The notes under the pieces are model-generated. The model was not told where the DNA came from, did not search any database, and saw nothing but the letters and a program-made list of their open reading frames with translations. Positions 3,047-53,333 of a stretch of 64,000 bases of DNA are shown here, piece by piece. The stretch covers positions 256,001 through 320,000 of the forward strand of contig CBDCLE010000026.1 of assembly GCA_965218585.1 (NCBI GenBank), in the 5' to 3' direction. Source of the DNA: Terriglobia bacterium (GTDB taxonomy: Bacteria; Acidobacteriota; Terriglobia; 20CM-2-55-15). Every line of letters starts with the position of its first letter. Position 1 is the stretch's first letter. The position numbers and the translations under genes were made by a program.

Positions 3047-3164
3047 CTAGGAGCCTGTCGGGAATAAGAAGTCTGCGAGCAAGAATCAACAACTTGCGAG
3101 CTATCCTTGGTCTATAAGTTGTTGATTCTTGGTTCGAGGGAGCCAATTCCCGACAGGCTCCTAG
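3047..3164. mobile_element. MITE (110-bp core flanked by CTAG)
   Basis: Perfect 19-bp terminal IR CTAGGAGCCTGTCGGGAAT / ATTCCCGACAGGCTCCTAG; perfect 16-bp inner IR 3080-3095 / 3116-3131. Confidence 0.85.
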
Positions 3165-4097
3165 TACTACTATGTTACAAACGAAGCGGTCCACAGAACG
3201 GACAACGAGGAAGCTGCTGAATCAGGAAGCGGGCGATGCGAATGCGAAGCGTGGCAATCGAGCAGGGGTTATGTCGTTCGGGCCGGATCCGGGGTTCCGC
3301 GGGGTTTGAAGTGTTTGGGGAGTTTGGGGACGGATAGTCCAACATGCTCGACAAATGCAGAGGGGGAAAAACGGCTCCGCTCGGCGACCAGGAACCCATA
3401 AGAGGCTTGTAGTTGTTGCCGTAGGCCGTATCGCCCAGAACCGGTGCCGGAGCAATGCCGTCATCGACGGCCTGCCGGATTTGTTCCAAAGCAATTTGAG
3501 GTTTAGTTTGAAATCGAACGTCTTCGGGAATAGCGGCTTTGCTTCGACGTTCCGGATCCTTCGCCCAGGTCTCGGGGAGGTAGAGTCGCCATGCCACCGG
3601 CAAGCTGGATTTCGCTGTCGCCACCGACAGGCTCACCGCCACCCGGCAGTTCTCAGGTTTGCCGACCTGTCCACAGTATTGCCGGGCCACACCCACCGAG
3701 TGGGTCCCCTTTTTCACGAATCCGGTGTCGTCGACAATCCAGGCTTCAATCGGACCGTTGGCTTCCATCGCCCCCAGCGCGTACTGTCGAACTTCTGCCA
3801 ACAGAGCCGCATCGTCCCAGGGCGCATCCGCGACCAGATGATGTAGCGACTGGTGCATTCGGCGTACATTATCCGGAGCCAATCGTGCAGCCATCGGCTC
3901 CACACTCTTACGTTTGATCGGCAGCAACAACCCGGTGCAGTACGACTTCAACGGTTCATGACGATCGGCGTGTCCTGCGGCCGACGCCAGGCGTTCCAAA
4001 TAGGCCGCAAAACGTTTTTCCTGAGTGCCTGGCGCCTTCGATTTGGCGCTCATGACCGGATGCTAACATAAAATAGACCGTTTGTAACATAGTAGTA
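3165..4097 (-). mobile_element. IS701-family element, internally deleted copy
   Basis: Near-identical to 47324-48791 but lacks 535 bp; terminal IRs TACTACTATGTTACAAACG / CGTTTGTAACATAGTAGTA. Confidence 0.92.
3175..4053 (-). pseudogene. IS701-family transposase with internal deletion and frameshift
   Basis: N-terminus matches ORF 47428..48747 up to GNNYK (one substitution), then out of frame. Confidence 0.9.
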
Positions 4098-4337
4098 CTA
4101 CCCGCACGATGCGAAACAAAAGAACGGTCTCTGTCTACCATCTCTTCATTCACCACCTTTCCACTTCATAGGATAAGGCTAATGTTTCTCACCGCACCAG
4201 TGCTGAAAGTAATGCGTATACTCCCATTGTATTCCGCCCTCGCTGAATTGTGGTTTCCACCTGCACCTTTTTCCTATCTTGAAGACTTCGGTCCAATTAT
4301 CCCAATAGAGTCACGGCTTTACTCCCGCTACGAGCTG

Positions 4338-15675: not shown

Positions 15676-18129
15676 ATGAATCAAAACGGTTTTGCCACGC
15701 CTATCGTGTGTGCGATTGCCATAGTGCTGGTCACCCTTGGTGCGCCCACGAGTTTTGCGCAGGGACCCGATGAGGCAACCCAGATCGAATTCATGAACCA
15801 GTACTGCGTGGGCTGCCACTCCGGTGGCACGGTGACCAGTCTGGTCCCAGTACCCCAGTGGGCGGATGAGATCGACCGGGACCTGTCCAACATCGCTGCT
15901 GAAGGTGAAATTTGGGAAGAGGTGATCCGTAAGGTGCGCGGACGGATGATGCCGCCGGCCGGCATCATCGCCCCTCGAGAGGAAGCCGACGCTTTTGTCG
16001 CCTTCATCGCGAACGCTCTGGATCAGGCAACAGCTAGCAATCCTGAGCCCGGAAGAAAGTCCCTGCACCGCCTTAACCGCACGGAATACGGAAACGCAGT
16101 CCGGGACCTGTTCAACCTCGAGATCGATGCAACTCAGATGTTGCCCCCAGACACCTCCGGGTCCAGTGGATTCGACAACGTTGCGGATGTGCTCGGAACC
16201 GAACCCGCACTGATGAACCGCTACCTGGCTGCCGCATGGGAAGTCACCCGCCGGGCCGTCGGCGACACGACGCTGGCACCTTCAGTTCAGACCTTCCTTG
16301 TCGCGAGAGATCTCGCGCAGACCGACTACGTCGAGGGACTGCCCCTGGGCACACGTGGAGGCCTGCTGGCGGAGTTTTTTGCCCCTGTCGATGGAGAGTA
16401 TGAGATCAATCCCTCTTTGATGCGCAGCACAACCGATGTCCCCAGAGGCATGGAGTTTGAGCATACTGCTGAGATCAGCGTGGACGGTGAGCGGATGAAT
16501 CTCGCAACGCTCGGTGGATTCGGCGATGCCGCTCTCGCTGTCAGCCGCCCGGCCCGTGCAGGAGCCGAGTTTGATGCGCGAATGAGTACCACGGTGACGC
16601 TTGAAGCGGGCCCGCACGAAATCGGCGTCGCCTTCCTCAAGCAGACGGCCGGAATGACGCCATTCATGATCCAGCCGTTTTTCAATGAGATCGATTCCAG
16701 CTGGCCATTCGGAATCCCCTATCTTAAGCATATCCGGGTCACAGGTCCGGTGAACACGACCGGCGCCGGTGATTCTCCGAGCCGGGGGACGATCTTCACG
16801 TGCCACCCGGATCGGGGTGACGAAGCCGCGGCCTGCGCCGAATCCATTCTCTCAAGGATTGCGCGCCGTGCCTATCGCCGTCCCGTCACCGATTCTGAGG
16901 TGGAACGTTTGGTGGGCTTTTACCGAGATGAACGGGACACGGGCGGCAATTTCGATCTCGGAATTCAGAAGGCGTTGACTTATATGCTGGTGACGCCGCA
17001 GTTCCTGTTCCGCTTCGAGACCGACCCGGAAGGCATTGAACCCGATACGACGTATCGTATCAGCGACCTGGAACTCGCCTCCCGGCTATCGTTCTTTCTC
17101 TGGTCGACCCTGCCCGATGAAGAATTACTGGACAGCGCGATCGCCGGAAGTCTCAGTCAGCCGGAGGTTCTGGAGCAACAGGTCGGGCGGATGCTCGCCG
17201 ATGGGCGTGCCAACGCGCTCATCAATAATTTTGCCGCACAATGGCTGACGTTCCGAAACCTGGAAGTGTTCCGTCCCGACAACCAGGCATTTCCCGATTT
17301 CGACGACAGTCTGCGGCAATCGTTCCTGCGGGAAACCGAGTTGCTTTTCCAGGACATCATGCGCAGGGACCGGCCGATCCAGGAACTGTTGACAGCCGAC
17401 TACACGTACCTCAACGAACGGCTCGCCATCAACTACGGCATTCCCGACATCTTCGGCGACCAGTTCCGGAGGGTGGATCTCAGTGACAACCCTAACCGTA
17501 AGGGCGGCATACTGGACCACGGCAGCATCCTGACGGTCAGTTCCTACCCGAACCGGACCTCTCCGGTGCTGCGCGGCAAATACATCCTGACCAACATTCT
17601 GGGTACCCCACCCCCGGCCCCGCCTGAGAACGTTCCCGCGCTGGAAGAAGAGTTGAGCGAACCGCAGAGCATGAAAGAACGGATGGAAGCGCACCGGGCA
17701 AATCCAGCTTGTGCGGGATGCCATCAGCTAATGGATCCCATCGGACTGGCCATGGAGAACTACGACGGAATCGGGCGGTGGCGGACCGATGACGGCGGTG
17801 CTGCTGTCGATCCGGATGCCGGGGTGATCCACCCCTTACAGGACTACGGCCCGATAAACGGTCCGACTGCTCTGGGCGAGGCTCTGGTCGAAAATCCGTA
17901 TCGCTTCGCGCAGACAGCGACGGAAAAGCTTTTGGCTTACGCGTTGGGGCGCGTATTGCAATACAACGACATGCCGGTTGTCCGGGAAATTACCGGGAAC
18001 GCTCGGGAGAATGACTATCGTTTCTCATCCTTCGTTATGGGCGTGGTTTCGAGCGTCCCCTTCCAGATGAGAGTCAGCACTGCAGCACTCCAGTCGGCGG
18101 CTGCCTCAGACGATACAAGGACTAATTAA
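15676..18129 (+). CDS. DUF1592/DUF1588/DUF1585-type multi-domain cytochrome c-like protein
   Basis: CVGCH and CAGCH, RLNRTEY, ELASRLSFFLW, RTSPVLRG. Confidence 0.88.
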   Translation: MNQNGFATPIVCAIAIVLVTLGAPTSFAQGPDEATQIEFMNQYCVGCHSGGTVTSLVPVPQWADEIDRDLSNIAAEGEIWEEVIRKVRGRMMPPAGIIAPREEADAFVAFIANALDQATASNPEPGRKSLHRLNRTEYGNAVRDLFNLEIDATQMLPPDTSGSSGFDNVADVLGTEPALMNRYLAAAWEVTRRAVGDTTLAPSVQTFLVARDLAQTDYVEGLPLGTRGGLLAEFFAPVDGEYEINPSLMRSTTDVPRGMEFEHTAEISVDGERMNLATLGGFGDAALAVSRPARAGAEFDARMSTTVTLEAGPHEIGVAFLKQTAGMTPFMIQPFFNEIDSSWPFGIPYLKHIRVTGPVNTTGAGDSPSRGTIFTCHPDRGDEAAACAESILSRIARRAYRRPVTDSEVERLVGFYRDERDTGGNFDLGIQKALTYMLVTPQFLFRFETDPEGIEPDTTYRISDLELASRLSFFLWSTLPDEELLDSAIAGSLSQPEVLEQQVGRMLADGRANALINNFAAQWLTFRNLEVFRPDNQAFPDFDDSLRQSFLRETELLFQDIMRRDRPIQELLTADYTYLNERLAINYGIPDIFGDQFRRVDLSDNPNRKGGILDHGSILTVSSYPNRTSPVLRGKYILTNILGTPPPAPPENVPALEEELSEPQSMKERMEAHRANPACAGCHQLMDPIGLAMENYDGIGRWRTDDGGAAVDPDAGVIHPLQDYGPINGPTALGEALVENPYRFAQTATEKLLAYALGRVLQYNDMPVVREITGNARENDYRFSSFVMGVVSSVPFQMRVSTAALQSAAASDDTRTN

Positions 18130-18146
18130 CAGAGGAGTAAATCCAC

Positions 18147-19532
18147 ATGTTCATTACCAGGCAACATCTGTCTCGAAGGACTTTCTTGAAGGGCACCGGA
18201 GCGACCCTCGCGCTCCCATTCCTCGATGCGATGATTCCGGCGGCTGCCGCCCAGTCGGTGCCTACACCGACTCAACGATTCACGTTCATCTACACGCCAA
18301 TGGGCGCACTGATGGAAAAGTGGATGCCGATGAAGAAGGATGGAGCCGGTATCGATTTCTCTCCAACGCTGTCGCCCCTGGAGCCGTTTCGAGAGTACGT
18401 CAACATCGTCAGTGGGCTTCACAACGTCGGGATACAAAACCACCCGCCCTCTCCGCCGATGTGGCTCAGCGGAAACGTGCCCGGGGCCGGAGGCAACCAG
18501 ATGGCCGCCGCACGGCGGCTGGCGACGACGGTGGACCAGCTCATCGCACAGAAGATCGGCCAGGACACGACTTTCGAATCACTGCCGGTCGCGGTCGAAG
18601 ACGCTTCGCAGTTGATTGGAGCATGCTCGATCGACGACAACTGTGATTACATCAATACCATATCCTGGCGCAGCCCGACCCAGCCCCTGACAATGGAGAT
18701 CCACCCGCGACTCGTCTTCGAACAACTGTTTGGCGGCGAGGGCAATCAGGAAGCCCGCGACCAGCGCTTGAGGGACAACACCAGCATTCTCGACACCCTG
18801 ACGTCCGATATCCGTGCTTTAAGCGGCGATCTGGGGACAGGAGACAGGGCCCGGGTCGACGAGTACCTGGACAGTGTCCGGACTGTCGAACTTCAGTTGG
18901 TCCGGGGAGAGCAACAGCGACAGGAAAAGGGATTGGAAGCGCCGGAAAACATTCCCGTGGGGATGCCGGACTCCTTCGAGGAACACGTGGGACTGATGTT
19001 CCAGCTGCAAGCACTCGCGTTCCAGGGCGACCTGACGCGCGTGACGTCTTTCATGATGGCTCGCGAACTGAGCGGACTCTCCTATCCTGAGCTTGGCGTC
19101 CAGGAAGCCCATCACCCGGTTTCGCACCACGCCTACGTTGCGGAAGTTATGGAACAGAAGGCCCGGATCGACGCCTTCCACATCTCCATGCTCGCAAAGT
19201 TTGTGGAACAGCTCCGGTCTACGCCTGAAGGTGACGGCAACCTGCTGGATACTGCAGTCGTCATGTACGGATCTGGAATGAGCAACTCGCAGATACACGA
19301 TCACAACAACCTGCCCACGCTGCTCATCGGTGGCGGCGCCGGAAAACTACGCGGAGACCGGCATATCCAGACCGGCGTTGTAGCCCAAGAGCGCGTGATC
19401 CCGGCCATTCCGCACTTCGACAAGATGACGCCGTTGACGAACCTGCACGTTTCTTTGCTCAACATGGCGGGCATCGAAACAGATTCCTTTGGTGCTGCGG
19501 AGAACGCGAGCACCAGTTCGGTTGACATCTAG
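18147..19532 (+). CDS. DUF1552 family Tat-exported protein
   Basis: SRRTFLKG...LPFLDAM, TVDQLIA, DLTRV, HDHNNLP. Confidence 0.88.
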   Translation: MFITRQHLSRRTFLKGTGATLALPFLDAMIPAAAAQSVPTPTQRFTFIYTPMGALMEKWMPMKKDGAGIDFSPTLSPLEPFREYVNIVSGLHNVGIQNHPPSPPMWLSGNVPGAGGNQMAAARRLATTVDQLIAQKIGQDTTFESLPVAVEDASQLIGACSIDDNCDYINTISWRSPTQPLTMEIHPRLVFEQLFGGEGNQEARDQRLRDNTSILDTLTSDIRALSGDLGTGDRARVDEYLDSVRTVELQLVRGEQQRQEKGLEAPENIPVGMPDSFEEHVGLMFQLQALAFQGDLTRVTSFMMARELSGLSYPELGVQEAHHPVSHHAYVAEVMEQKARIDAFHISMLAKFVEQLRSTPEGDGNLLDTAVVMYGSGMSNSQIHDHNNLPTLLIGGGAGKLRGDRHIQTGVVAQERVIPAIPHFDKMTPLTNLHVSLLNMAGIETDSFGAAENASTSSVDI

Positions 19533-42749: not shown

Positions 42750-44486
42750 CCCGCATGTTTCACCAGTCCGGCGATCAGGGGGATTTGGGCAGTAAGAATC
42801 GGATTCGGGAGGATCTGGGTTCGAATTGGGCATGTGTGGCGTGACTCGCCGGTGTCGACAAGCGGGAGTTGCTGCGTTTTCGGGTTCAGAAGAGGGTGAC
42901 GAAACGCACTGAGACAAACCTCGGCGGAGCCGAAAAGAGCGAGTCGATTTTGGCGCAGGGGATCGGGTCGGTTCTCAGCAGCGCAGAGGAAGCGCCTGCA
43001 GGTTTCGATGGACGAGGGCAAAGACCTCGGCGTAGGGATAGGCTTCCGACATGGAGATCCAGATGTTGCGAACCGTCAGACGGACTTGAGCTCCGATCTT
43101 GAGGAGCTTCAAGCGGATCGTCTGGCACTGAGCGCGGGCCAGATCGGTATTCTTCAGTCCCAGACGGCGTAACGCGTGCAGGAGCATGTAGGCGGCCGAG
43201 GACAGATAGAGCCGGAGTTGATTGGCGCGCATGGTTGCCGCGCTGGTCCGGTCGGCGAATAGATCCAACTGCTGTTCCTTGATGCGATTTTCCATGTCGC
43301 CCCGCGCACAGTAAAAGTCTTCATAGAGGGCGCGGGCGTCCAGGCGTTCCGGCGACAGTGAGGTCACAACGAATCGAGGATTGGCGCCTTTCTCCAGGAA
43401 CTCGGCCTTGCCGATGACGCGTCGGGTGCAGGTCCAGCTCTTCCGAGTGCGATACCGGAAATCGTTAAACACCCGCGCCGGTTTCCCGGTGTCGTTAAAC
43501 TCGGCTTCGGCCTGACTCATCGATTCAGCGATCTCGCGCTTGAGCCGATCGTTCTTGGCCAGACCCACCACGTAATCGACCTGGTGGGCCTCGCACCAAC
43601 TCAGCAATTCATCCCGGCAAAAGCCCGAGTCGGCCCGGATGATAATCGACACCTCCGGCCAGCTCTGCCGGATCTGGCCGATGATGCGGTTCAATTCCTC
43701 GACGGCGCCGTCCGCACCGTCGACATTGGAGCACCGCAACCGGGCGCATAGCAGATGCTCTCCCGAAAAGATGTAGAGCGGCAGATAACAGTAGTTGCCG
43801 TAGTAGCCGTGAAAGAACCGTCCTTCCTGATGGCCATGGATCGGATCATCGGTCGCATCCAGGTCCAGAACAATCTCCTCGGGCGCCGATCCGTGAGCCG
43901 CCACAAATGCATCCACCATCCAGCGGTCGATCTTGTCCGGGTCCATGGCAATCTTCTTGTACCGCTCCTTCCCATCGACTTGCTCCCCGGTCAGTTCCAA
44001 CCGGTTCAGCGTACACTTGCCCGCCAACGCTTTTCCCCGGTCTCGGGCCTGCCGCCGCTTCTCCCCCAGTGGATCGGCCTTATCCACCGCCACGGCCAGC
44101 ATCGGATCGGTCCGCAGTTGGTCATGATCGTTCAGATCCTCGTAGCCCAGACAGAGTCCGTAGACGCGCTGCCCCAATAACTCGCTCACCGTGTGTTCGA
44201 TCAACCTCGCGTCCCGGTAATCCCTGAAACACTCGGCCAGTCCGGCGATCAGACCCGTTCGCTTTTCCACTTCCCTCAACAGCAGAACCCCAGCGTCGGA
44301 GGTGATCTTTCCGCCGTCAAAACGCGCCTTCACTTTTCGTTGAAGAAGTCCGTGAAATTCGAACGTCGTTTGGTTACACTCTGTTCTCATAAGGGCCGTC
44401 TCCGTTTGGCTTGTTAAACGTTTATTTCAAAACGCTTTATGCCAGACAGGGCGGCCTTTTCTGGTCCTATTGGTGAAATATGCGGG
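42750..44486 (-). mobile_element. IS1380-family element
   Basis: IR CCCGCATGTTTCACCA / TGGTGAAATATGCGGG (1 mismatch); CTAG on both flanks (42746-42749, 44487-44490). Confidence 0.92.
42975..44390 (-). CDS. IS1380-family transposase
   Basis: FDGGKITSDAG, LDLDATDD, RADSGF, RGDMENRIKE. Confidence 0.93.
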   Translation of the reverse strand: MRTECNQTTFEFHGLLQRKVKARFDGGKITSDAGVLLLREVEKRTGLIAGLAECFRDYRDARLIEHTVSELLGQRVYGLCLGYEDLNDHDQLRTDPMLAVAVDKADPLGEKRRQARDRGKALAGKCTLNRLELTGEQVDGKERYKKIAMDPDKIDRWMVDAFVAAHGSAPEEIVLDLDATDDPIHGHQEGRFFHGYYGNYCYLPLYIFSGEHLLCARLRCSNVDGADGAVEELNRIIGQIRQSWPEVSIIIRADSGFCRDELLSWCEAHQVDYVVGLAKNDRLKREIAESMSQAEAEFNDTGKPARVFNDFRYRTRKSWTCTRRVIGKAEFLEKGANPRFVVTSLSPERLDARALYEDFYCARGDMENRIKEQQLDLFADRTSAATMRANQLRLYLSSAAYMLLHALRRLGLKNTDLARAQCQTIRLKLLKIGAQVRLTVRNIWISMSEAYPYAEVFALVHRNLQALPLRC

Positions 44487-44573: not shown

Positions 44574-45881
44574 TTGCTGTACACTCTCGTGTCAGCGAAG
44601 ACAGCAACCACTTTAGACATCCTCTCGAATGACGTGAGAACAGACGCACTCCGAGCGGTCCGTCGACGCCTGCCCCTGGTACTGGCGGGAAATACCATCA
44701 TCAGGATTGCGGGCGGCGCAGGAGGCGTTCTGATCGGGCTCTATTTTTCCGATCTGGGAAACCGGGGCCAGGACGTGAACGCAATGGTCGTCGGCCTGCT
44801 TGGCGCGGTGACATACGGCACGGAACTCATCGGGGCAGTACCGATGGGCGTCCTGACCGACCGGTTATCCCCACGATTTCTGATGATTGCAGGAGGCCTG
44901 CTTGGCGCGACCGGAATGGGCCTGCTGGGATTTGTTCGACAGGTACCGGCGTTCTTCGTTTCACGAAGCCTCGAGGGAGGGGCGTGGGCAGCCAGCGCGA
45001 CATCGATCCTGGCCTACCTGACGGACCTGACCGAGGACGCAAAACATATTCGCGGCCGGGTTATGGCCATATTCGAAGTGACCCTCCTTACGGGGATCGC
45101 GCTCGGGGGGCCGGTCGGTGCAGGCCTCTGGCAGCGGCTGGGAACGACGGCGTTCGTCACCACAGCAGGTGTGTACCTGCTGAGTTCAGCCGTATTCTGG
45201 ATTGGAGCAAGGGGGAGTGAGAAACGGAGCACGGAAGAAGCCTTCGCCGGGCTCAGACACGCCTTCAACGAACCCTCGATACGAAGGCTTGCACCGGCCT
45301 GGCTAGCGATCAACGCCATTATCGGGATCTGGATGGGGCCCATGATCACCTTTCTGCTCACCTTCCGCCAGGAAGGTAGCCAGTACCTGAACGGGCTGTT
45401 CGCCGACAACCCCGAACAGGTGGGTTGGGTATTCCTGGCCTACACGCTGGTGTTTGGTCTTGGGGTGACAATCTGGAGCTTCTTTATCGACCGCCTCGAT
45501 AGAAAAACAGTCCTTTCAGCCTGCCTAACAGCCACCCTGGTCGTCTGCGGAGCACTATACCTGGTGAATCACACACCGGACCTGGGACCCGGACCTCGCG
45601 TGGGATTACTGGCTTTCCTGGCCCTGGCCCTTATGGTCGAAAGCGGATTCACACCTGCAGCACTGGCCTTGCTGGCCGACATCGTCGGTGGAGTCACCGG
45701 TCGTGGCGCAGCGATGGGCATCTACTCGGCGCTACTTGGAATCGGAGCCTTGATCGGCGCTCTGATTGCCAGTGTTCTGGGCGCCCAGTTTGGAATTGAC
45801 GGTCTGATCCACGGGACCGTCGCCCTCGTCGTTGTCGCGCTGATAACGATTCGCAATCTCTCTGTAAGAGGTTCGTCTTGA
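44574..45881 (+). CDS. MFS transporter (true start possibly GTG 44634)
   Basis: About 12 hydrophobic segments; GVLTDRLSPR motif A; stop overlaps next start. Confidence 0.85.
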   Translation: MLYTLVSAKTATTLDILSNDVRTDALRAVRRRLPLVLAGNTIIRIAGGAGGVLIGLYFSDLGNRGQDVNAMVVGLLGAVTYGTELIGAVPMGVLTDRLSPRFLMIAGGLLGATGMGLLGFVRQVPAFFVSRSLEGGAWAASATSILAYLTDLTEDAKHIRGRVMAIFEVTLLTGIALGGPVGAGLWQRLGTTAFVTTAGVYLLSSAVFWIGARGSEKRSTEEAFAGLRHAFNEPSIRRLAPAWLAINAIIGIWMGPMITFLLTFRQEGSQYLNGLFADNPEQVGWVFLAYTLVFGLGVTIWSFFIDRLDRKTVLSACLTATLVVCGALYLVNHTPDLGPGPRVGLLAFLALALMVESGFTPAALALLADIVGGVTGRGAAMGIYSALLGIGALIGALIASVLGAQFGIDGLIHGTVALVVVALITIRNLSVRGSS

Positions 45882-47287
45882 CAGAATCCGAGTTCGACCT
45901 GGCGATCATCGGCGCCGGATCGGGCGGAATAACCGCGGCGAACTTTGCCGCGAAACTGGGAGCACGCACCGTTCTGGTTGAAAAGGGCCGGATCGGAGGG
46001 GATTGCACTTGGACGGGTTGCGTCCCGAGCAAAGCGCTCCTCAAGGCAGCTAGGGTGGCACACGAAGCACGCATCGCCTCCCGCTATGGCATCACCGTTT
46101 CTGCACCCGCAGTCGATATGGCCAGGGTCCGTGATTATGTGACCTCAGCCATCGAAAACGTCTACCAGTACGAGACACCGGAAACATTTGAACAGTCGGG
46201 TATCGAAGTGGTCAATGCACCGGCCCGATTCGTCGACGCTCGAACGATACGTGCCGGTGACCGTATGTTGAAGGCAAAAGCTTTTCTGATCACGACCGGT
46301 GCACGGCCGATGGTACCCCCTGTCCTGGGTCTGGACGAAACTCCTTTCGTCACCTATGAACAGATATTCGACAACGCACAACTGCCTCGGACAATGACGA
46401 TCATAGGAGCGGGGCCGATCGGGGTAGAAATGGCACAGGCCTACCAGCGGTTCGGTACCCGGGTCACGCTCATCGACATTGCGCTACTGCCGAGAGAAGA
46501 GCCTGAAGCACGAAGGATCATTCTGGAAACACTCCAGGGGGAAGGCGTTCGATATCTGGAAGGGTTGGCGACGAAGGTGTACCCCGACGGCGATGAGGTT
46601 GTCATCGAGACGGCGTCTGGTCAAACTCGTTCCCAACTCCTGCTTGTGGCCACAGGGCGGGCACCCAACGTCGATGGACTCGGCCTGGAGGAAGCCGGCG
46701 TCCGTTATTCAGCCAAAGGGATTGAAGTCGATGATCGACTGCGTACCAATGTCGCTCACATATATGCCGCCGGTGACGTGACAGGAGGTTACCAGTTCAC
46801 ACATTTTGCCGCATGGCAGGCCTTCCAGGCTGTCCGCAATGCCCTGCTGCCGGGTCACAGTTCCGGCTTCACACATAACGTTCCCTGGGTGACGTATACG
46901 GATCCGGAAGTCGCGCACGTTGGGCTCGGGGAGGAGGAAGCTCGTGAAAAGTTTCCCGATGCTATCCACGTCCACCGCCATGAAATGGACCACGTTGATC
47001 GCGCCGTCTGCGAAAACGACACGCGGGGATTTCTCAAGGTCGTGACGAAACCGGACGACACGATTCTGGGGGCCACCATCGTTGCGTCCCGGGCCGGTGA
47101 AGTCATCACCGAGTTCGTCATAGCGATCGACAACAAGCTACGTCTCAGTGACCTGGCCGGCACGATCCACCCCTATCCGACCTATTCGACCCCAGTGCAA
47201 CAACTGGGGGCGGATGTTGCGGTGGAACGGGCCCTGGAGGGCGCGCGGGGAAAAGTGATCCGGGGAATCTCGAAGTTGATCCGGTAA
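45878..47287 (+). CDS. MerA-like pyridine nucleotide-disulfide oxidoreductase
   Basis: GAGSGG, GGDCTWTGCVPSK, GAGPIG, AAGD, HPYPT; no C-terminal CC. Confidence 0.9.
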   Translation: MTESEFDLAIIGAGSGGITAANFAAKLGARTVLVEKGRIGGDCTWTGCVPSKALLKAARVAHEARIASRYGITVSAPAVDMARVRDYVTSAIENVYQYETPETFEQSGIEVVNAPARFVDARTIRAGDRMLKAKAFLITTGARPMVPPVLGLDETPFVTYEQIFDNAQLPRTMTIIGAGPIGVEMAQAYQRFGTRVTLIDIALLPREEPEARRIILETLQGEGVRYLEGLATKVYPDGDEVVIETASGQTRSQLLLVATGRAPNVDGLGLEEAGVRYSAKGIEVDDRLRTNVAHIYAAGDVTGGYQFTHFAAWQAFQAVRNALLPGHSSGFTHNVPWVTYTDPEVAHVGLGEEEAREKFPDAIHVHRHEMDHVDRAVCENDTRGFLKVVTKPDDTILGATIVASRAGEVITEFVIAIDNKLRLSDLAGTIHPYPTYSTPVQQLGADVAVERALEGARGKVIRGISKLIR

Positions 47288-47323
47288 TACGTTCGAACGG
47301 GGGATTTATGACAAACCAACTAT

Positions 47324-48791
47324 TATTACTGTGTTACAAACGAAGCGGTCCACAGAACGGACAACGAGGAAGCTGCTGAATCAGGAAGCGGGCGATGCGA
47401 ATGCGAAGCGTGGCAATCGAGCAGGGGTTATGTCGTTCGGGCCGGATCCGGGGTTCCGCGGGGTTTGAAGTGTTTGGGGAGTTTGGGGACGGATAGTCCA
47501 ACATGCTCGACAAATGCAGAGGGGGAAAAACGGCTCCGCTCGGCGACCAGGAACCCATAAGAGGCAATACATAAGGTGCCATGATGGTGAAATCCACGCC
47601 AGCCGCGACCTTCGTAGTGTCCCAGACCGAGTTCCTGCTTGAGTTCCTGATAGTCGCGTTCGATGATCCAGCGCTGTTTGGCCTGACCGGCCAGATCGGA
47701 AAGCGAGGTATGGGCCCCAAGAGTGGAGAGCCAGTACCGGATCGGTTCGGATGCGGTCTTGGGCCACTCGACCAACAACCACTCTTTCGGATGCGGCGAG
47801 TGGCGCTCGTGATCCAGATGAGCGGGACGAATGCGAACTGCGGCGAAACGGGAACGCAGGGTCTCGGAGGTGCCTTCGCGCCAGGAGACGTTCTTCCAAC
47901 GCTGGGGAGACAACGAGAGGGCCAGTTGCTTGACCGAAACCGGTTGATGTTTCTTGTTGCGCTGCATGCGGGTCGGTGTCCGTCCGCGGCCGGTCAAGGA
48001 TTTCGGCGGCAAGGGACCCTGGCCCGGTTTCCACACGGTCGTGGTGCCTTGCACCCCTAGGACGTAGCTAAGTCCGAGTTCGGTGATGCCGTGCCGGAAC
48101 TTGTAGTTGTTGCCGTAGGCCGTATCGCCCAGAACCGGTGTCGGAGCAATGCCGTCATCGACGGCCTGCCGGATTTGTTCCAAAGCAATTTGAGGTTTAG
48201 TTTGAAATCGAACGTCTTCGGGAATAGCGGCTTTGCTTCGACGTTCCGGATCCTTCGCCCAGGTCTCGGGGAGGTAGAGTCGCCATGCCACCGGCAAGCT
48301 GGATTTCGCTGTCGCCACCGACAGGCTCACCGCCACCCGGCAGTTCTCAGGTTTGCCGACCTGTCCACAGTATTGCCGGGCCACACCCACCGAGTGGGTC
48401 CCCTTTTTCACGAATCCGGTGTCGTCGACAATCCAGGCTTCAATCGGACCGTTGGCTTCCATCGCCCCCAGCGCGTACTGTCGAACTTCTGCCAACAGAG
48501 CCGCATCGTCCCAGGGCGCATCCGCGACCAGATGATGTAGCGACTGGTGCATTCGGCGTACATTATCCGGAGCCAATCGTGCAGCCATCGGCTCCACACT
48601 CTTACGTTTGATCGGCAGCAACAACCCGGTGCAGTACGACTTCAACGGTTCATGACGATCGGCGTGTCCTGCGGCCGACGCCAGGCGTTCCAAATAGGCC
48701 GCAAAACGTTTTTCCTGAGTGCCTGGCGCCTTCGATTTGGCGCTCATGACCGGATGCTAACATAAAATAGACCGTTTGTAACATAGTAGTA
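47324..48791 (-). mobile_element. IS701-family element, full length (1468 bp)
   Basis: 19-bp IRs with 2 mismatches; 4-bp target duplication CTAT (47320-47323, 48792-48795). Confidence 0.93.
47428..48747 (-). CDS. IS701-family transposase
   Basis: RKSVEPMA, VDDTGFVKKG, GDTAYG, RWIIERDYQELKQELGL. Confidence 0.93.
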   Translation of the reverse strand: MSAKSKAPGTQEKRFAAYLERLASAAGHADRHEPLKSYCTGLLLPIKRKSVEPMAARLAPDNVRRMHQSLHHLVADAPWDDAALLAEVRQYALGAMEANGPIEAWIVDDTGFVKKGTHSVGVARQYCGQVGKPENCRVAVSLSVATAKSSLPVAWRLYLPETWAKDPERRSKAAIPEDVRFQTKPQIALEQIRQAVDDGIAPTPVLGDTAYGNNYKFRHGITELGLSYVLGVQGTTTVWKPGQGPLPPKSLTGRGRTPTRMQRNKKHQPVSVKQLALSLSPQRWKNVSWREGTSETLRSRFAAVRIRPAHLDHERHSPHPKEWLLVEWPKTASEPIRYWLSTLGAHTSLSDLAGQAKQRWIIERDYQELKQELGLGHYEGRGWRGFHHHGTLCIASYGFLVAERSRFSPSAFVEHVGLSVPKLPKHFKPRGTPDPARTT

Positions 48792-50284
48792 CTATCCGCG
48801 CCGCAGCCACTCGAGAAGAAGGACGCTGACTACATATTGTATGAATTCACACGCAGCATCTGCCCCGAATGCCGAAAGGTCATCGACGCCCAGGTTCTCT
48901 TGCGCGACAACAAGGTCTATATGCGCAAACGCTGCCCGGATTGCGGTCCGTTCGAGGGATTGGTTTATGGCGACGCCCAGATGTATGTCTCCCAGGCCAA
49001 ATACAACAGACCCGGCACTATTCCGTTGGAGTTTGGAACGGACGTCGAGGATGGGTGTCCACATGATTGCGGGCTGTGTCCCGATCATCAGCAACACGCC
49101 TGCCTTGGAATAATAGAAGTCAACAGCGCGTGCAACATGAACTGTCCGCTCTGCTTCTCTGAGGCGGGAGCAGGTTTCAGCCTCACGCTGGAAGAAGTGG
49201 AGAACATCCTGGACGACTTCGTCCGTACCGAAGGCGATCCTGAAGTCATACAGTTTTCCGGAGGAGAACCGACGATTCACCCCCAGATCATAGAGTTCAT
49301 CGCCGCGGCCAAGGCGCGAGGAATTTCCCTGGTTATGATCAACACGAACGGAAAACGAATCGCTGATGACGATGCGTTCCTGGAACAGCTCAAAGGGGCG
49401 CAGCCTTCCATTTATTTTCAGTTCGACGGGTTCGACAGCGAAACATACAGGATCATCTGGGGAGAACCCGACATTCTCGAACAGAAACTCCGGGCGCTGG
49501 ACAGGCTGGCGGAAATAGGACTCAGCGTAACGCTTGTCCCAGCAATTGAACGAGGCGTCAACGATCACGAGCTGGGAAGAATCATCGACCTGGCAATCAA
49601 ACATCCCGCGATCTGCGGCATAAACTTTCAGCCGGCGTTTCACGCAGGCCGCCACATGGCACACGACCCGATGGAACGCATGACCATCCCCGACGTCCTC
49701 AAACTGATCGAAGAGCAGACGAAGAAACAGTTCATGGTCAGCGATTTCGTACCGGTCCCCTGCTGTTTCCCCACGTGCAACTCGGTAACTTACGGATTCA
49801 TCGACGGGGACACGGTGACGCCGATACCCCGTGTCGTCAACGTGCACGACTATCTGGACTACATCACGAATCGCGCCCTGCCGGATTGGAATCAGGACGT
49901 GACCCGGGCACTGGAGGGCCTGTGGTCTTCCTCTTCGGTTCCCGGTTCAGACAAGTCGACCCAGCAGATTGCACTCTCTTGCGAGGCTTGTGGAATTCCC
50001 GAGTCGTTTGCCGTAGGTGACATCGCGGAACACGTCATCATGATCATGCTCCAGGACTTCATGGACCCATGGACATTCAATCAGAAGAACGTGATGAAGT
50101 GCTGCAAGGAATTCCTGCTGCCGGGCAGCAAGCAGATCCCGTTCTGCGCGTACAACACAATCGGCTATCGCGAACAGGCCCGAGAGCAGCTCGAAGCCAT
50201 GGAGCCCTTGCGCCTCGAAGCCCGCAGGGATGGCTCCCGCTACGAACCTCAACCGGTCAACTTCTCGTTCAGTAACGGTGACTC

Positions 50285-51094
50285 ATGAAGGAAACCATCG
50301 ATCTGGTAACGACAGCCGAAGAAATCAAGTCCTGCTGCGCACAGCTCTATGAACAGGATTTCGTTCGGATCCTCCTCGGTGACTCATTTCATCCCGGCGG
50401 TCTCGACCTGACGACGCAGTTGGGCCGTGCGATGGGTCTCAAACCGGAACTGAGAGTCCTGGACGTGGCTTCGGGCACGGGCACCAGCGCGCTACATATC
50501 ACGAAAACGTTCGGCTGTGAGGTGGTCGGTGTCGATTACGGGAAGGAGAACGTCCGCGTCGCGAACGAGGAAGCAGCCCGGCGTGGACTTAGCGATCGCG
50601 TCCGGTTCGAACACGGCGACTCAGAGCGTCTGCCTTTTGGAGACACCTCGTTCCACGCCATCGTGTGCGAATGTGCGTTCTGTACGTTTCCCGACAAAGC
50701 CGTGGCCGCCGGGGAGTTCTATCGCGTCCTCGGCCCGGGTGGTCGCGTAGGTCTCGGCGACATTACCCGAAGCGATACGCTTGCAGCCGAACTCCGTTCA
50801 TTGATGGCGTGGGTCGCCTGCATCGCTGACGCTCAACCGGTAGCTGGCTACCAGGAAAGACTTACGGCGGCCGGTTTCCGTATGGACTCGGTTACCCCTC
50901 ACGACGATGCGCTCACTGAAATGGTAAATCAGATTCGTGGGAAACTACTCGGACTGGAGATTGCGGTTGGCCTCAAGAAGATCGACCTGCCGGAAGTGGA
51001 CTTCACGAGCGCAAAAAACATGGCAAGGGCGGCTCTTGAAGCGATCAGTCGAGGTCAGTTGGGATACGCGCTCCTGACAGCGACCCGCCTGTAG
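50285..51094 (+). CDS. SAM-dependent methyltransferase, ArsM-like cysteine pattern
   Basis: SCCA, HPGG, LDVASGTG, VCECAFC, PDK...RVLGPGG, WVACIADA; ATGA overlap with radical SAM gene. Confidence 0.8.
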   Translation: MKETIDLVTTAEEIKSCCAQLYEQDFVRILLGDSFHPGGLDLTTQLGRAMGLKPELRVLDVASGTGTSALHITKTFGCEVVGVDYGKENVRVANEEAARRGLSDRVRFEHGDSERLPFGDTSFHAIVCECAFCTFPDKAVAAGEFYRVLGPGGRVGLGDITRSDTLAAELRSLMAWVACIADAQPVAGYQERLTAAGFRMDSVTPHDDALTEMVNQIRGKLLGLEIAVGLKKIDLPEVDFTSAKNMARAALEAISRGQLGYALLTATRL

Positions 51095-51965: not shown

Positions 51966-53333
51966 GAGGTCGTTCCAATCGGTGTGTAAAAAGAGAAGGC
52001 GGTGTACGCTTTCGGTGAATTCGAAACCGTAAGCAATCCCGGCAGCAATCGGGAGAAAGGTACACCACCCATGAAGAAGAAGAAGAACATACCGGCATCA
52101 GTGGCGTCAACGAACGCGTATGAAGGTTTGGAGGACTGGGCGCGATCCCGGGTCCAAGTCTGGCTACAGGAGCTGCTTGAGGACGAAGTCACTCAATTTC
52201 TGGGTCGGGAAAAGTCGGAGCGGAGTCCGAATCGACGAGGATACCGGAACGGTCACGGGAAGCCGCGACGCTTCGCAATGATGAACGGCACGATGGAGGT
52301 TCGACGACCTCGGGTTCGAAACACCGCCGAGCGGTTCGAGAGTCAGATCCTGCCGTATTTTCGACGGAAATCGAAACAGCTGGGCGAGCTACTTCCCGAT
52401 CTCTACCTCCACGGCCTGGCCACAGGGGACTTCGAGCAGGCCATGCGCGGACTGCTTGGCGCTGGCGCTCCGTTGTCGCGAGCATCGATCCAACGACTGA
52501 AATCGACCTGGCAGTTGGAGTATGACGAGTGGGTCCAGCAGGACCTGTCCGGCCTCGAGGTCGTGTACCAGTGGGCAGACGGCTTGTACGTGAAAGCGGG
52601 GATCGCGAAAGAGCGAGTGGCATTGCTGGTGATCATCGGAGCCTTGTCAGACGGGCGCAAAGTGCTGTTGGCCTGTGAGAGCGGGCAGCGGGAAAGCAAG
52701 GAGTCCTGGAGCCGCATTCTGCGCAATCTCCAGAGACGGGGCCTGAAGCTGGGACGGCTGACTGTCGCGGACGGTCACCTGGGCATCTGGTCCGCGCTGG
52801 CCGAGCAACAGCCCCAGGGCCAGGAACAACGCTGCTGGAACCACAAGTCGATCAACGTGGTCGATCATCTGCCGAAGACCGAGCAGCCCGCGGCCAGACA
52901 GCTGCTTCATGGGATGGCCTTCGCGAACTCCCGCGCGGCCTGCGAACGAAAGCGGGATCAGTTCGTCCGCCGATATGAGAAGAACTATCCCAAAGCGGGT
53001 GAGACGCTGTTGCGGGACTGGGACCGGATGATTACTTTCTATGAGTTCCCGAAACAACACTGGGTGCATCTGAGAACAACCAACATCGTCGAATCGCCCT
53101 TCGACATGGTTCGCCTCCGCACCAACGCCGCTCGCCGATTCAAGCGTGTCGAGAATGCAACGGCAATGATTTGGAAGCTACTACGTGTCGCTGAGAAGGC
53201 TTGGCGACACTTAAAAGGATCCGAACTCTTACAAGAGGTCTATGATGGTCAGCAATTCGCTGACGGCATCAGAGTCGTGATGAAATCGAAGGCCGCCGCC
53301 TGATGACTTTTACACACCTTTTGTAATGACCTC
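51966..53333 (+). mobile_element. IS256-family element, complete
   Basis: IRs GAGGTCGTTCCAATCGGTGTGTAAAA / TTTTACACACCTTTTGTAATGACCTC; 9-bp duplication GGATGTGAC (51957-51965, 53334-53342). Confidence 0.95.
52071..53303 (+). CDS. IS256-family transposase
   Basis: GYRNG, WADG, VADG, QRCWNHK, RTTNIVES. Confidence 0.93.
   Translation: MKKKKNIPASVASTNAYEGLEDWARSRVQVWLQELLEDEVTQFLGREKSERSPNRRGYRNGHGKPRRFAMMNGTMEVRRPRVRNTAERFESQILPYFRRKSKQLGELLPDLYLHGLATGDFEQAMRGLLGAGAPLSRASIQRLKSTWQLEYDEWVQQDLSGLEVVYQWADGLYVKAGIAKERVALLVIIGALSDGRKVLLACESGQRESKESWSRILRNLQRRGLKLGRLTVADGHLGIWSALAEQQPQGQEQRCWNHKSINVVDHLPKTEQPAARQLLHGMAFANSRAACERKRDQFVRRYEKNYPKAGETLLRDWDRMITFYEFPKQHWVHLRTTNIVESPFDMVRLRTNAARRFKRVENATAMIWKLLRVAEKAWRHLKGSELLQEVYDGQQFADGIRVVMKSKAAA

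Follow-up and report, generated by a model that had tools for sequence, protein, structure and literature searches.

A radical SAM–methyltransferase gene pair of the TrsS clade, with accessory permease and disulfide reductase genes, interrupted by IS701 in a Terriglobia bacterium

A conserved gene module built around an enzyme of the radical S-adenosylmethionine (SAM) type and a methyltransferase was analyzed in a 64,000-nt stretch (the window) of Terriglobia bacterium assembly GCA_965218585.1 (4.55 Mb). The invariant core of this module is a radical SAM protein with the Tes fold that belongs to the TrsS clade, together with a translationally coupled, cysteine-rich methyltransferase; a major facilitator superfamily (MFS) permease and a class I flavoprotein disulfide reductase form a frequent accessory pair. 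In the window the radical SAM gene is split by an IS701 element. We tentatively read the whole as a horizontally mobile, stress-linked module that may form a carbon–element bond and methylate the element, a thiophilic one; we hold this reading to be possible, somewhat short of probable.

Results

Conservation and distribution of the module

The loci compared are the best 80 of 401 radical SAM relatives obtained from a scan of one genome per species. In 78 of them a methyltransferase gene lies directly downstream of the radical SAM gene on the same strand, and the other two are contig ends, which stop 139 and 8 nt past the radical SAM match. The reductase was present in 52 loci, the permease in 45 and both in 42; where at least 5 kb upstream and at least 4 kb downstream were available (47 loci), the counts were 36 for the reductase and 30 for the permease. 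When present, the reductase gene was upstream on the same strand (30 loci), upstream and divergent (18), downstream on the same strand (3) or downstream on the opposite strand (1). The genes are co-conserved far beyond chance, and the linkage of radical SAM and methyltransferase genes, which the first-pass annotation of this DNA had named as a check on its proposal, held up. A fusion of permease and reductase in locus L058 was considered and rejected, as the MFS match lies in a different reading frame from the 948-aa open reading frame (ORF).

Judged by record titles, carriers are mostly Acidobacteriota, with others among Ktedonobacteria/Chloroflexota, Pseudomonadota and Vulcanimicrobiota and one metagenome-assembled genome (MAG) labelled Clostridia. 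One carrier, Ktedonobacter racemifer DSM 44963 (L073), is in culture. With identities of at least 70%, the clade of module radical SAM proteins crosses five phyla. The module itself is uncommon and scattered: 6 of 21 close relatives have it, as do 4 of 401 genomes taken from across the phylum. TrsS and the DVU_1556-family methyltransferase were reportedly named by Haft & Tolstoy 2025 (mSystems). That work lay outside the reach of our literature search, which found no description of this module.

Gene order and the IS701 insertion

Four plus-strand ORFs, encoding the permease, reductase, radical SAM enzyme and methyltransferase in that order, span 44574–51094 in the ORF list (Table 1). The TTG start of the reductase gene and the TGA stop of the permease gene share 4 nt at 45878–45881, and the ATG start of the methyltransferase gene and the TGA stop of the radical SAM gene share 4 nt at 50285–50288. 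The first-pass annotation had described four co-oriented genes with two overlapping junctions and, once IS701 is removed, a 20-nt gap at the third; the ORFs and junction sequences bear out all of these. The start codon of the permease gene is uncertain, since its homologues align from residue 56 onward only.

Table 1. The module and its immediate flanks (window positions)
Feature	Position	Strand	Evidence
IS1380-family transposase, directly upstream flank	42975–44390	-	NF033539 397.9 bits (cut-off 180), PF13701
MFS permease, 435 aa	44574–45881	+	PF07690 129.5 bits; stop overlaps reductase start
Class I flavoprotein disulfide reductase, 469 aa	45878–47287	+	Pyr_redox_2 and Pyr_redox_dim
Severed 5' end of radical SAM gene (ATG and 4 codons)	47308–47322	+	N-terminus and spacer match same-genus locus L119
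IS701 element	47320–48794	.	Transposase 47428–48747 (-, 439 aa), inverted repeats, ACTA at both ends
Rest of radical SAM gene	48795–50288	+	PF23545 and PF04055; listed ORF 48837–50288 from TTG, 483 aa
Cysteine-rich class I SAM methyltransferase, 269 aa	50285–51094	+	DVU_1556 family 124 bits (cut-off 155), ArsM 95.2 (263)
IS256-family transposase, downstream flank	52002–53303	+	NF033543 275.5 bits (cut-off 150)

The element at the third junction belongs to IS701 by its transposase (NF033540, 433.9 bits against a cut-off of 150), by its 22-nt terminal inverted repeats (47321–47342 and 48773–48794, 86% complementary) and by its multiple copies; ACTA occurs at both ends (47319–47322 and 48791–48794). 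Elsewhere in the assembly there are 22 more full-length copies (at least 1,468 nt, 99.46–99.86% identical), which indicates that the element is active and this insertion recent. It sits 12–15 nt inside the radical SAM gene and cuts it after the fifth codon. Taking out the element and one ACTA restores an in-frame ATG at 47308, preceded by GGGGGA and lying 20 nt past the reductase TAA (47285–47287), and yields a protein of 502 aa, the same length as its closest homologue (locus L001). Two genomes of the same genus, G001 and G003, carry the four genes in unbroken order, and the spacer in G001 is also 20 nt.

The truncated radical SAM ORF retains every conserved cysteine. As read from the sequence, the insertion severs this ORF from its own start codon, ribosome site and upstream operon or promoter, and the core of radical SAM enzyme and methyltransferase is therefore probably silenced or uncoupled in the source genome. 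Contigs of X1, X2 and X3, checked for an IS-free allele, run up to the IS701 ends and none bridges the element, a result that does not speak against an empty site. Full-length copies and fragments of IS701 occur as a burst throughout the genome, and a split copy lies near the window start (3161–4105). The window also carries IS1380, two IS256 elements (one of them partial) and one DUF772/DDE transposase.

The radical SAM enzyme

The radical SAM protein carries a zinc ribbon of the HMPTM type together with a radical SAM core (PF23545, PF04055). On the Tes model NF045702 it scored 329.7 bits, below the cut-off of 450, and the best stretch covered the N-terminal half only (residues 5–316 onto 2–318 of 486); on the TrsS model NF045646 it scored 312 bits against a cut-off of 490, with a full-length alignment (5–441 onto 3–431 of 441). 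The AlphaFold model (predicted local distance difference test, pLDDT, 82) had a single good structural match, the glycerol dialkyl glycerol tetraether (GDGT) enzyme GDGT-MAS (7TOL/7TOM, TM score 0.77–0.79), and the next was MoaA at 0.43. The zinc ribbon, the auxiliary CX3CX2C..C motif and CxxxCxxC accompany the Tes fold. Nineteen cysteines are invariant or nearly so, among them C9, C12, C33, C74, C78, C81, C89, C99, C103 and C106.

A tree of 40 sequences separated Tes and a paralogue of about 700 aa from a group in which TrsS is sister to clade E plus the module clade. The split between the Tes and TrsS sides received a Shimodaira–Hasegawa-like approximate likelihood ratio (SH-aLRT) support of 99 and the module clade 100, in a quick search that flagged long branches. 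At the sequence level, the selenocysteine (U318, encoded by TGA) of the TrsS protein of locus L098 (571.5 bits) falls opposite C309 in the alignment, a residue that does not vary in 78 module sequences; the same site is serine in the Tes of M. jannaschii and variable in acidobacterial Tes. Cysteines C310, C382, C385 and C423 never vary within the module clade and are found in it specifically; the clade lacks an insert of about 25 residues carried by the acidobacterial Tes clade. Sequence and predicted structure thus place the module enzyme as a Tes-fold protein on the TrsS side, and not as a Tes orthologue. The first-pass label of a Tes-like radical SAM enzyme stands for the fold; it finds no support for the family, given the score below the Tes cut-off and the position away from true Tes. 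The proteins of clade E (L102, L115–L118) are TrsS-like, 33–36% identical to the window protein, and have a vicinal CC near the position of C382; no methyltransferase is linked to them.

True Tes orthologues do exist in Acidobacteriota (L099:5221–6843, L105:4820–6439 and L110:2332–3951), score 512–619 bits on the Tes model at full length and have no methyltransferase, reductase or permease nearby. They probably correspond to what the literature on branched GDGTs (brGDGTs) calls 'bacterial Tes homologues'. In the text available from them, Zeng 2022 and Chen 2022 propose such homologues for brGDGT synthesis. Because the module clade is separate from true Tes in scores, tree, insert and partners, that proposal most likely concerns another clade. 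None of 20 Tes-type or clade-E loci, 15 of them Tes-type, has a methyltransferase, reductase or permease nearby. Outside the window (contig C24:142134–144357, minus strand) the source genome encodes a second paralogue of the Tes-like radical SAM kind, about 700 aa long, which matches the Tes model at full length with 321 bits. This paralogue type was found in about all 21 relatives, and it makes a stronger candidate for an acidobacterial lipid-coupling enzyme than the window gene does.

The methyltransferase

The best models for the methyltransferase were the DVU_1556 family and ArsM (NF008823/PRK11873), both below their cut-offs (Table 1). Its seven cysteines are each at least 95% conserved across 74 sequences. 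Three of them, C17, C130 and C179, are invariant across the module methyltransferases, a model-validated ArsM (362.4 bits, L098) and a true DVU_1556 methyltransferase. ArsM has four conserved cysteines; the module protein does not have the segment with the 'GCGNP' cysteine, so that three of the four align. The predicted fold (pLDDT 89) is nearest to AtmM, MitM, SDMT, PEAMT, RebM and the mycolic-acid cyclopropane synthases (CMAS), with Z scores of 25–28.5, and the C-terminal half of the predicted structure is a helical lid of the RebM/PEAMT/CMAS type. The 50 entries that Foldseek or VIA-align listed for this model did not include ArsM; by sequence, ArsM chains matched with E values of 1.5e-8 and 1.7e-6. 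A Protein Atlas search returned generic class I methyltransferase clusters only. Since the protein falls below the ArsM cut-off, lacks the 'GCGNP' segment and has a fold nearest to other methyltransferases, it appears to lie outside the ArsM family and to resemble ArsM at most in acting at a cysteine site. The first-pass description as ArsM-like therefore survives for the three aligned cysteines but not for family score or structural neighbours.

A complex of the radical SAM enzyme and the methyltransferase, folded without alignments, was predicted with a score of 0.42, against 0.00 for the best control; runs shared at least 62% of contacts, with a partner pLDDT of at least 76. In calibration 51 of 78 solved complexes reached the mark, as did 2 of 108 mismatched pairs; at 0.60 or under, just 5 of the 78 solved complexes reached it, together with all 4 passing mismatches of 180. 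The predicted complex thus lends weak support to the pairing.

The reductase

The first-pass annotation had called the reductase MerA-like, an assignment that did not hold. It scored 362.6 bits on the MerA model TIGR02053, below the cut-off of 454.45, and its best PDB matches were divided between MerA, at about 240 bits, and lipoamide dehydrogenase, at 232. The only invariant cysteines are C43 and C48 of the redox-active CxxxxC; the NmerA domain and the C-terminal cysteine pair of MerA are lacking, and 'HPYPT' stands where MerA has 'YLTM', which keeps the His-Pro of disulfide reductases. Full-length module reductases end in a conserved, cysteine-free basic tail (...SGxSGRIIRGLSKLIR). By sequence the protein is classed as a class I reductase of the glutathione reductase/lipoamide dehydrogenase kind and not as MerA. 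The one exception among the loci is a true MerA in L053, which ends in QLSCCAG.

Genomic neighbours

Extracytoplasmic function (ECF) sigma factors adjoin the module in 16 of the 80 loci, and a second type in 3, with zf-HC2 or NrsF anti-sigma factors. PiT-family transporters were found in 10 loci, VKOR in 9, a small GrdB/PrdB-like protein in 8 and redoxin/AhpC-TSA proteins in at least 8; DCC1, DoxX and DsbD/CcdA also recur. Genes for bufferins with an MNIO enzyme occur in 7 loci, heavy-metal P-type ATPases in 6, and MerT and RND/OEP efflux proteins in 3 each. In L035, L053 and L071 the module pair continues a bufferin operon; in the accessible text of two reports (PMC11626156, PMC3511200), the bufferin operons of Caulobacter are described as a SigF/NrsF-controlled defence against copper and heavy metals. 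In L035 (634–3945, minus strand), from an Acidobacteriaceae MAG, genes for MerT and a MerP-like HMA protein come after the permease and module reductase genes on the same strand, and MerA was not found in this stretch. Within the window, positions 15676–19529 hold a DUF1592/DUF1588/DUF1595-type (PSD/PSCyt) and DUF1552 gene pair, followed by an ankyrin-repeat protein gene.

Arsenic genes

The first-pass annotation had proposed that the four genes make organoarsenicals, possibly arsenolipids, and had named linkage to ars genes as a check. Canonical ArsM occurred in none of the 80 loci, and no ArsR, ArsC, Acr3 or ArsB family was seen among their annotated neighbours, a survey that did not scan every ORF. 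A search of the source genome turned up neither ArsM nor, at E 1e-10 or better, Acr3, and just one weak ArsC-like match. Canonical ArsM was present in 13 of 24 carrier genomes, compared with 211 of 401 genomes of the phylum sample, so that its frequency in carriers is about that of the background and ArsM is neither displaced nor enriched. The tally includes one unpublished genome (G170), on which no result depends. Displacement had been suggested by the 21 close relatives, in which none of 6 carriers and 13 of 15 non-carriers have ArsM, and it failed to generalize: further carrier genomes had ArsM in 12 of 15 cases, and carriers in another genus in 1 of 3, G298 and G354 not being among the matches listed. 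The proposed arsenolipid chemistry is unsupported speculation. Two genomes of the window's genus carry ArsM-like genes of about 213 bits, just under the cut-off, with one in-frame TGA each (G002:C41:582375–583034 and G004:C21:936000–936674), which may encode selenoprotein methyltransferases.

Discussion

Beyond the observed gene order, conservation, clade membership, alignments of cysteine and selenocysteine positions and genomic context, we infer an element, an acceptor and a series of chemical steps. A thiophilic element, whether metalloid or chalcogen (such as As, Sb, Se, Te or S), would be held on cysteine thiolates. The radical SAM enzyme would generate a substrate carbon radical and form a carbon–element bond at its extra cysteine site (C309/C310, C382/C385), and the methyltransferase would methylate the element at its ArsM-like cysteine site (C17, C130, C179). 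The reductase could re-reduce enzyme dithiols or an oxidized product, and the permease could transport substrate or product. Several points weigh against this scheme. The extra cysteines of the radical SAM enzyme could be ligands of another Fe–S cluster. Radical SAM enzymes are oxygen-labile, and most carriers are labelled as soil lineages, which are mostly aerobic. True TrsS adjoins a molybdenum (Mo) aldehyde oxidoreductase and a coenzyme A (CoA) ligase, neighbours that do not point to metal detoxification, and the fold of the methyltransferase is nearest to small-molecule, headgroup and lipid methyltransferases, with ArsM outside the top 50. No element-specific gene is consistently linked to the module, metal genes occur in a minority of loci, and lipid genes are among the neighbours (CDP-alcohol phosphatidyltransferase in 5 loci of Chloroflexota; PAP2 and FA_hydroxylase in 2 loci each).

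An organosulfur or thiol-redox metabolite is an unlikely product. Here the radical SAM enzyme would place sulfur on an unactivated carbon, stopping at the C–S intermediate of Tes, followed by S-methylation, while the reductase would cycle a dithiol/disulfide pair and the genes would be on under thiol or oxidative stress. Sulfur insertion by radical SAM enzymes is established for LipA and MiaB. The proximity of the reductase to lipoamide dehydrogenase as much as to MerA, with its His-Pro motif, fits such a role, as do the commonest neighbours, which are thiol-disulfide proteins (VKOR, DoxX, redoxins, DCC1, DsbD/CcdA) and ECF sigma factors with zf-HC2. The proposed mechanism of Tes, in the excerpted text of PMC13459092, includes a carbon–cluster–sulfur bond. 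However, the ArsM-like cysteine triad has no obvious use in an S-methyltransferase, and no test favoured sulfur over other soft elements. The organoarsenical proposal, in which the methyltransferase acts on As(III), the radical SAM enzyme joins arsenic to the omega carbon of a lipid, the reductase maintains thiols in the reduced state and the permease exports the product, seems to us distinctly unlikely. It can draw on the three cysteines at ArsM positions, on the Tes fold and the lipid methyltransferases of the methyltransferase fold group, on lipid-headgroup genes adjoining the module in Chloroflexota and on the 10 loci with a PiT-family anion transporter. PiT transporters are a route of arsenate uptake. 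The gene set also parallels arsQML, which, as far as the accessible text of PMC8552651 and 10.1101/2024.02.01.577332 goes, comprises the permease, ArsM and radical SAM enzyme ArsL of arsinothricin synthesis. The survey of arsenic genes speaks against the proposal, with canonical ArsM absent from the 80 loci, ars families absent from their annotated neighbours (not every ORF scanned) and ArsM in carriers at background frequency; the methyltransferase falls far below the ArsM cut-off without the 'GCGNP' cysteine, and the radical SAM enzyme lies outside the true Tes clade without its insert. We give little credence to a bolder version and consider it very improbable: here the radical SAM enzyme, with its Tes fold, would link a metalloid held by cysteine (As or Sb/Se/Te) to an unactivated carbon in a hydrophobic, lipid-like acceptor, and the ArsM-like partner would methylate the metalloid. 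If true, omega-dimethylarsinoyl-type arsenolipids, or the analogues with a chalcogen, would gain their first known enzymes, and a mobile stress island would carry them.

Synthesis of membrane-spanning lipids, with the radical SAM enzyme coupling alkyl tails (iso-diabolic acid, brGDGT) and the methyltransferase adding chain methyls, would agree with the Tes fold, the CMAS-type enzymes among the best fold matches, some lipid-gene neighbours and the available statements of Zeng 2022 and Chen 2022 on bacterial Tes homologues. We nevertheless regard it as improbable: Acidobacteriota have separate true Tes orthologues (cut-off 450), the paralogue of about 700 aa is nearly universal among the 21 relatives while the module is patchy, and none of the 15 Tes-type loci has the module's partners nearby. 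The module is mobile across five phyla and stands in stress and metal contexts. Sahonero-Canavesi 2022, in its accessible text, gives Tes homologues in only 3 of 14 producers of iso-diabolic acid. The least probable reading likens the module to the surroundings of TrsS, with their Mo aldehyde oxidoreductase and CoA ligase, and assigns it to small-molecule catabolism or to the maturation of a cofactor or enzyme. It has in its favour the sister relation of the radical SAM enzyme to TrsS and a similar methyltransferase partner, but the 80 loci contained no CoA ligase (DVU_1553), C-GCAxxG-C-C protein (DVU_1555) or dicluster oxidoreductase and a single weak aldehyde oxidoreductase match.

Whatever its chemistry, the radical SAM–methyltransferase pair is uncharacterized, is tightly conserved (five phyla, with at least 70% identity) and scores under all curated equivalog models. 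Its radical SAM enzyme is likely lumped with the 'bacterial Tes homologues' in searches for brGDGT producers, and separating it should sharpen those searches. Arsenosugar synthesis relies on a pair of a radical SAM enzyme and ArsM, and the module enzyme is of another family than ArsL and ArsS. If a carbon–element bond is indeed formed and the element methylated, the module would add a third to the kinds of radical SAM enzyme that have an ArsM-like methyltransferase as partner.

Comparison with known systems

The module reductase shares with MerA, lipoamide dehydrogenase and glutathione reductase the FAD/NAD(P)H fold and the CxxxxC pair (C43, C48), and differs from MerA in lacking NmerA and the C-terminal cysteine pair, in having 'HPYPT' for 'YLTM' and in its basic tail. 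The methyltransferase has in common with ArsM the class I Rossmann core, the aligned C17, C130 and C179 and a loop, 'AWVACIADA', that resembles 'MWVGCIAGA'; unlike ArsM, it scores 95.2 bits against the cut-off of 263, lacks the 'GCGNP' cysteine, has a RebM/PEAMT/CMAS-type lid and shows no ars linkage among the annotated neighbours. With arsQML the module shares the combination of permease, methyltransferase and radical SAM genes. Compared with Tes/GDGT-MAS (7TOL, 7TOM), the fold, the N-terminal zinc ribbon, the auxiliary-cluster motif and CxxxCxxC are the same, whereas the module enzyme stays under the Tes cut-off with its N-terminal half only, falls outside the true Tes clade, has no insert of about 25 residues as in acidobacterial Tes and is paired with a methyltransferase, which 0 of 15 Tes-type loci have.

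TrsS (NF045646) is similar by full-length model alignment and by its sister placement in the tree, and Cys309 of the module occupies the TrsS selenocysteine position, the module itself using no selenocysteine. Four true TrsS loci served for comparison (L095–L097 and L098:709–2067, plus strand), with a Mo aldehyde oxidoreductase, a dicluster flavoprotein and a PaaK-like DVU_1553 ligase nearby. In one of these loci (L095) the gene directly downstream encodes a related DVU_1556-family methyltransferase (NF045667), and a pyridine-nucleotide-disulfide oxidoreductase is nearby in three or four of the loci. In L098, whose TrsS gene bears the in-frame TGA for U318, a canonical ArsM gene lies 1.5 kb away. 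The module differs in scoring under both cut-offs (312 against 490 bits and 124 against 155), in its additional invariant C310, C382, C385 and C423 and in its partners, an MFS permease and a class I reductase in place of the Mo aldehyde oxidoreductase, CoA ligase and C-GCAxxG-C-C protein; its hosts are labelled as soil lineages. Should the proposed carbon–element chemistry prove true, the module would offer experimental access to the unstudied TrsS selenoprotein system.

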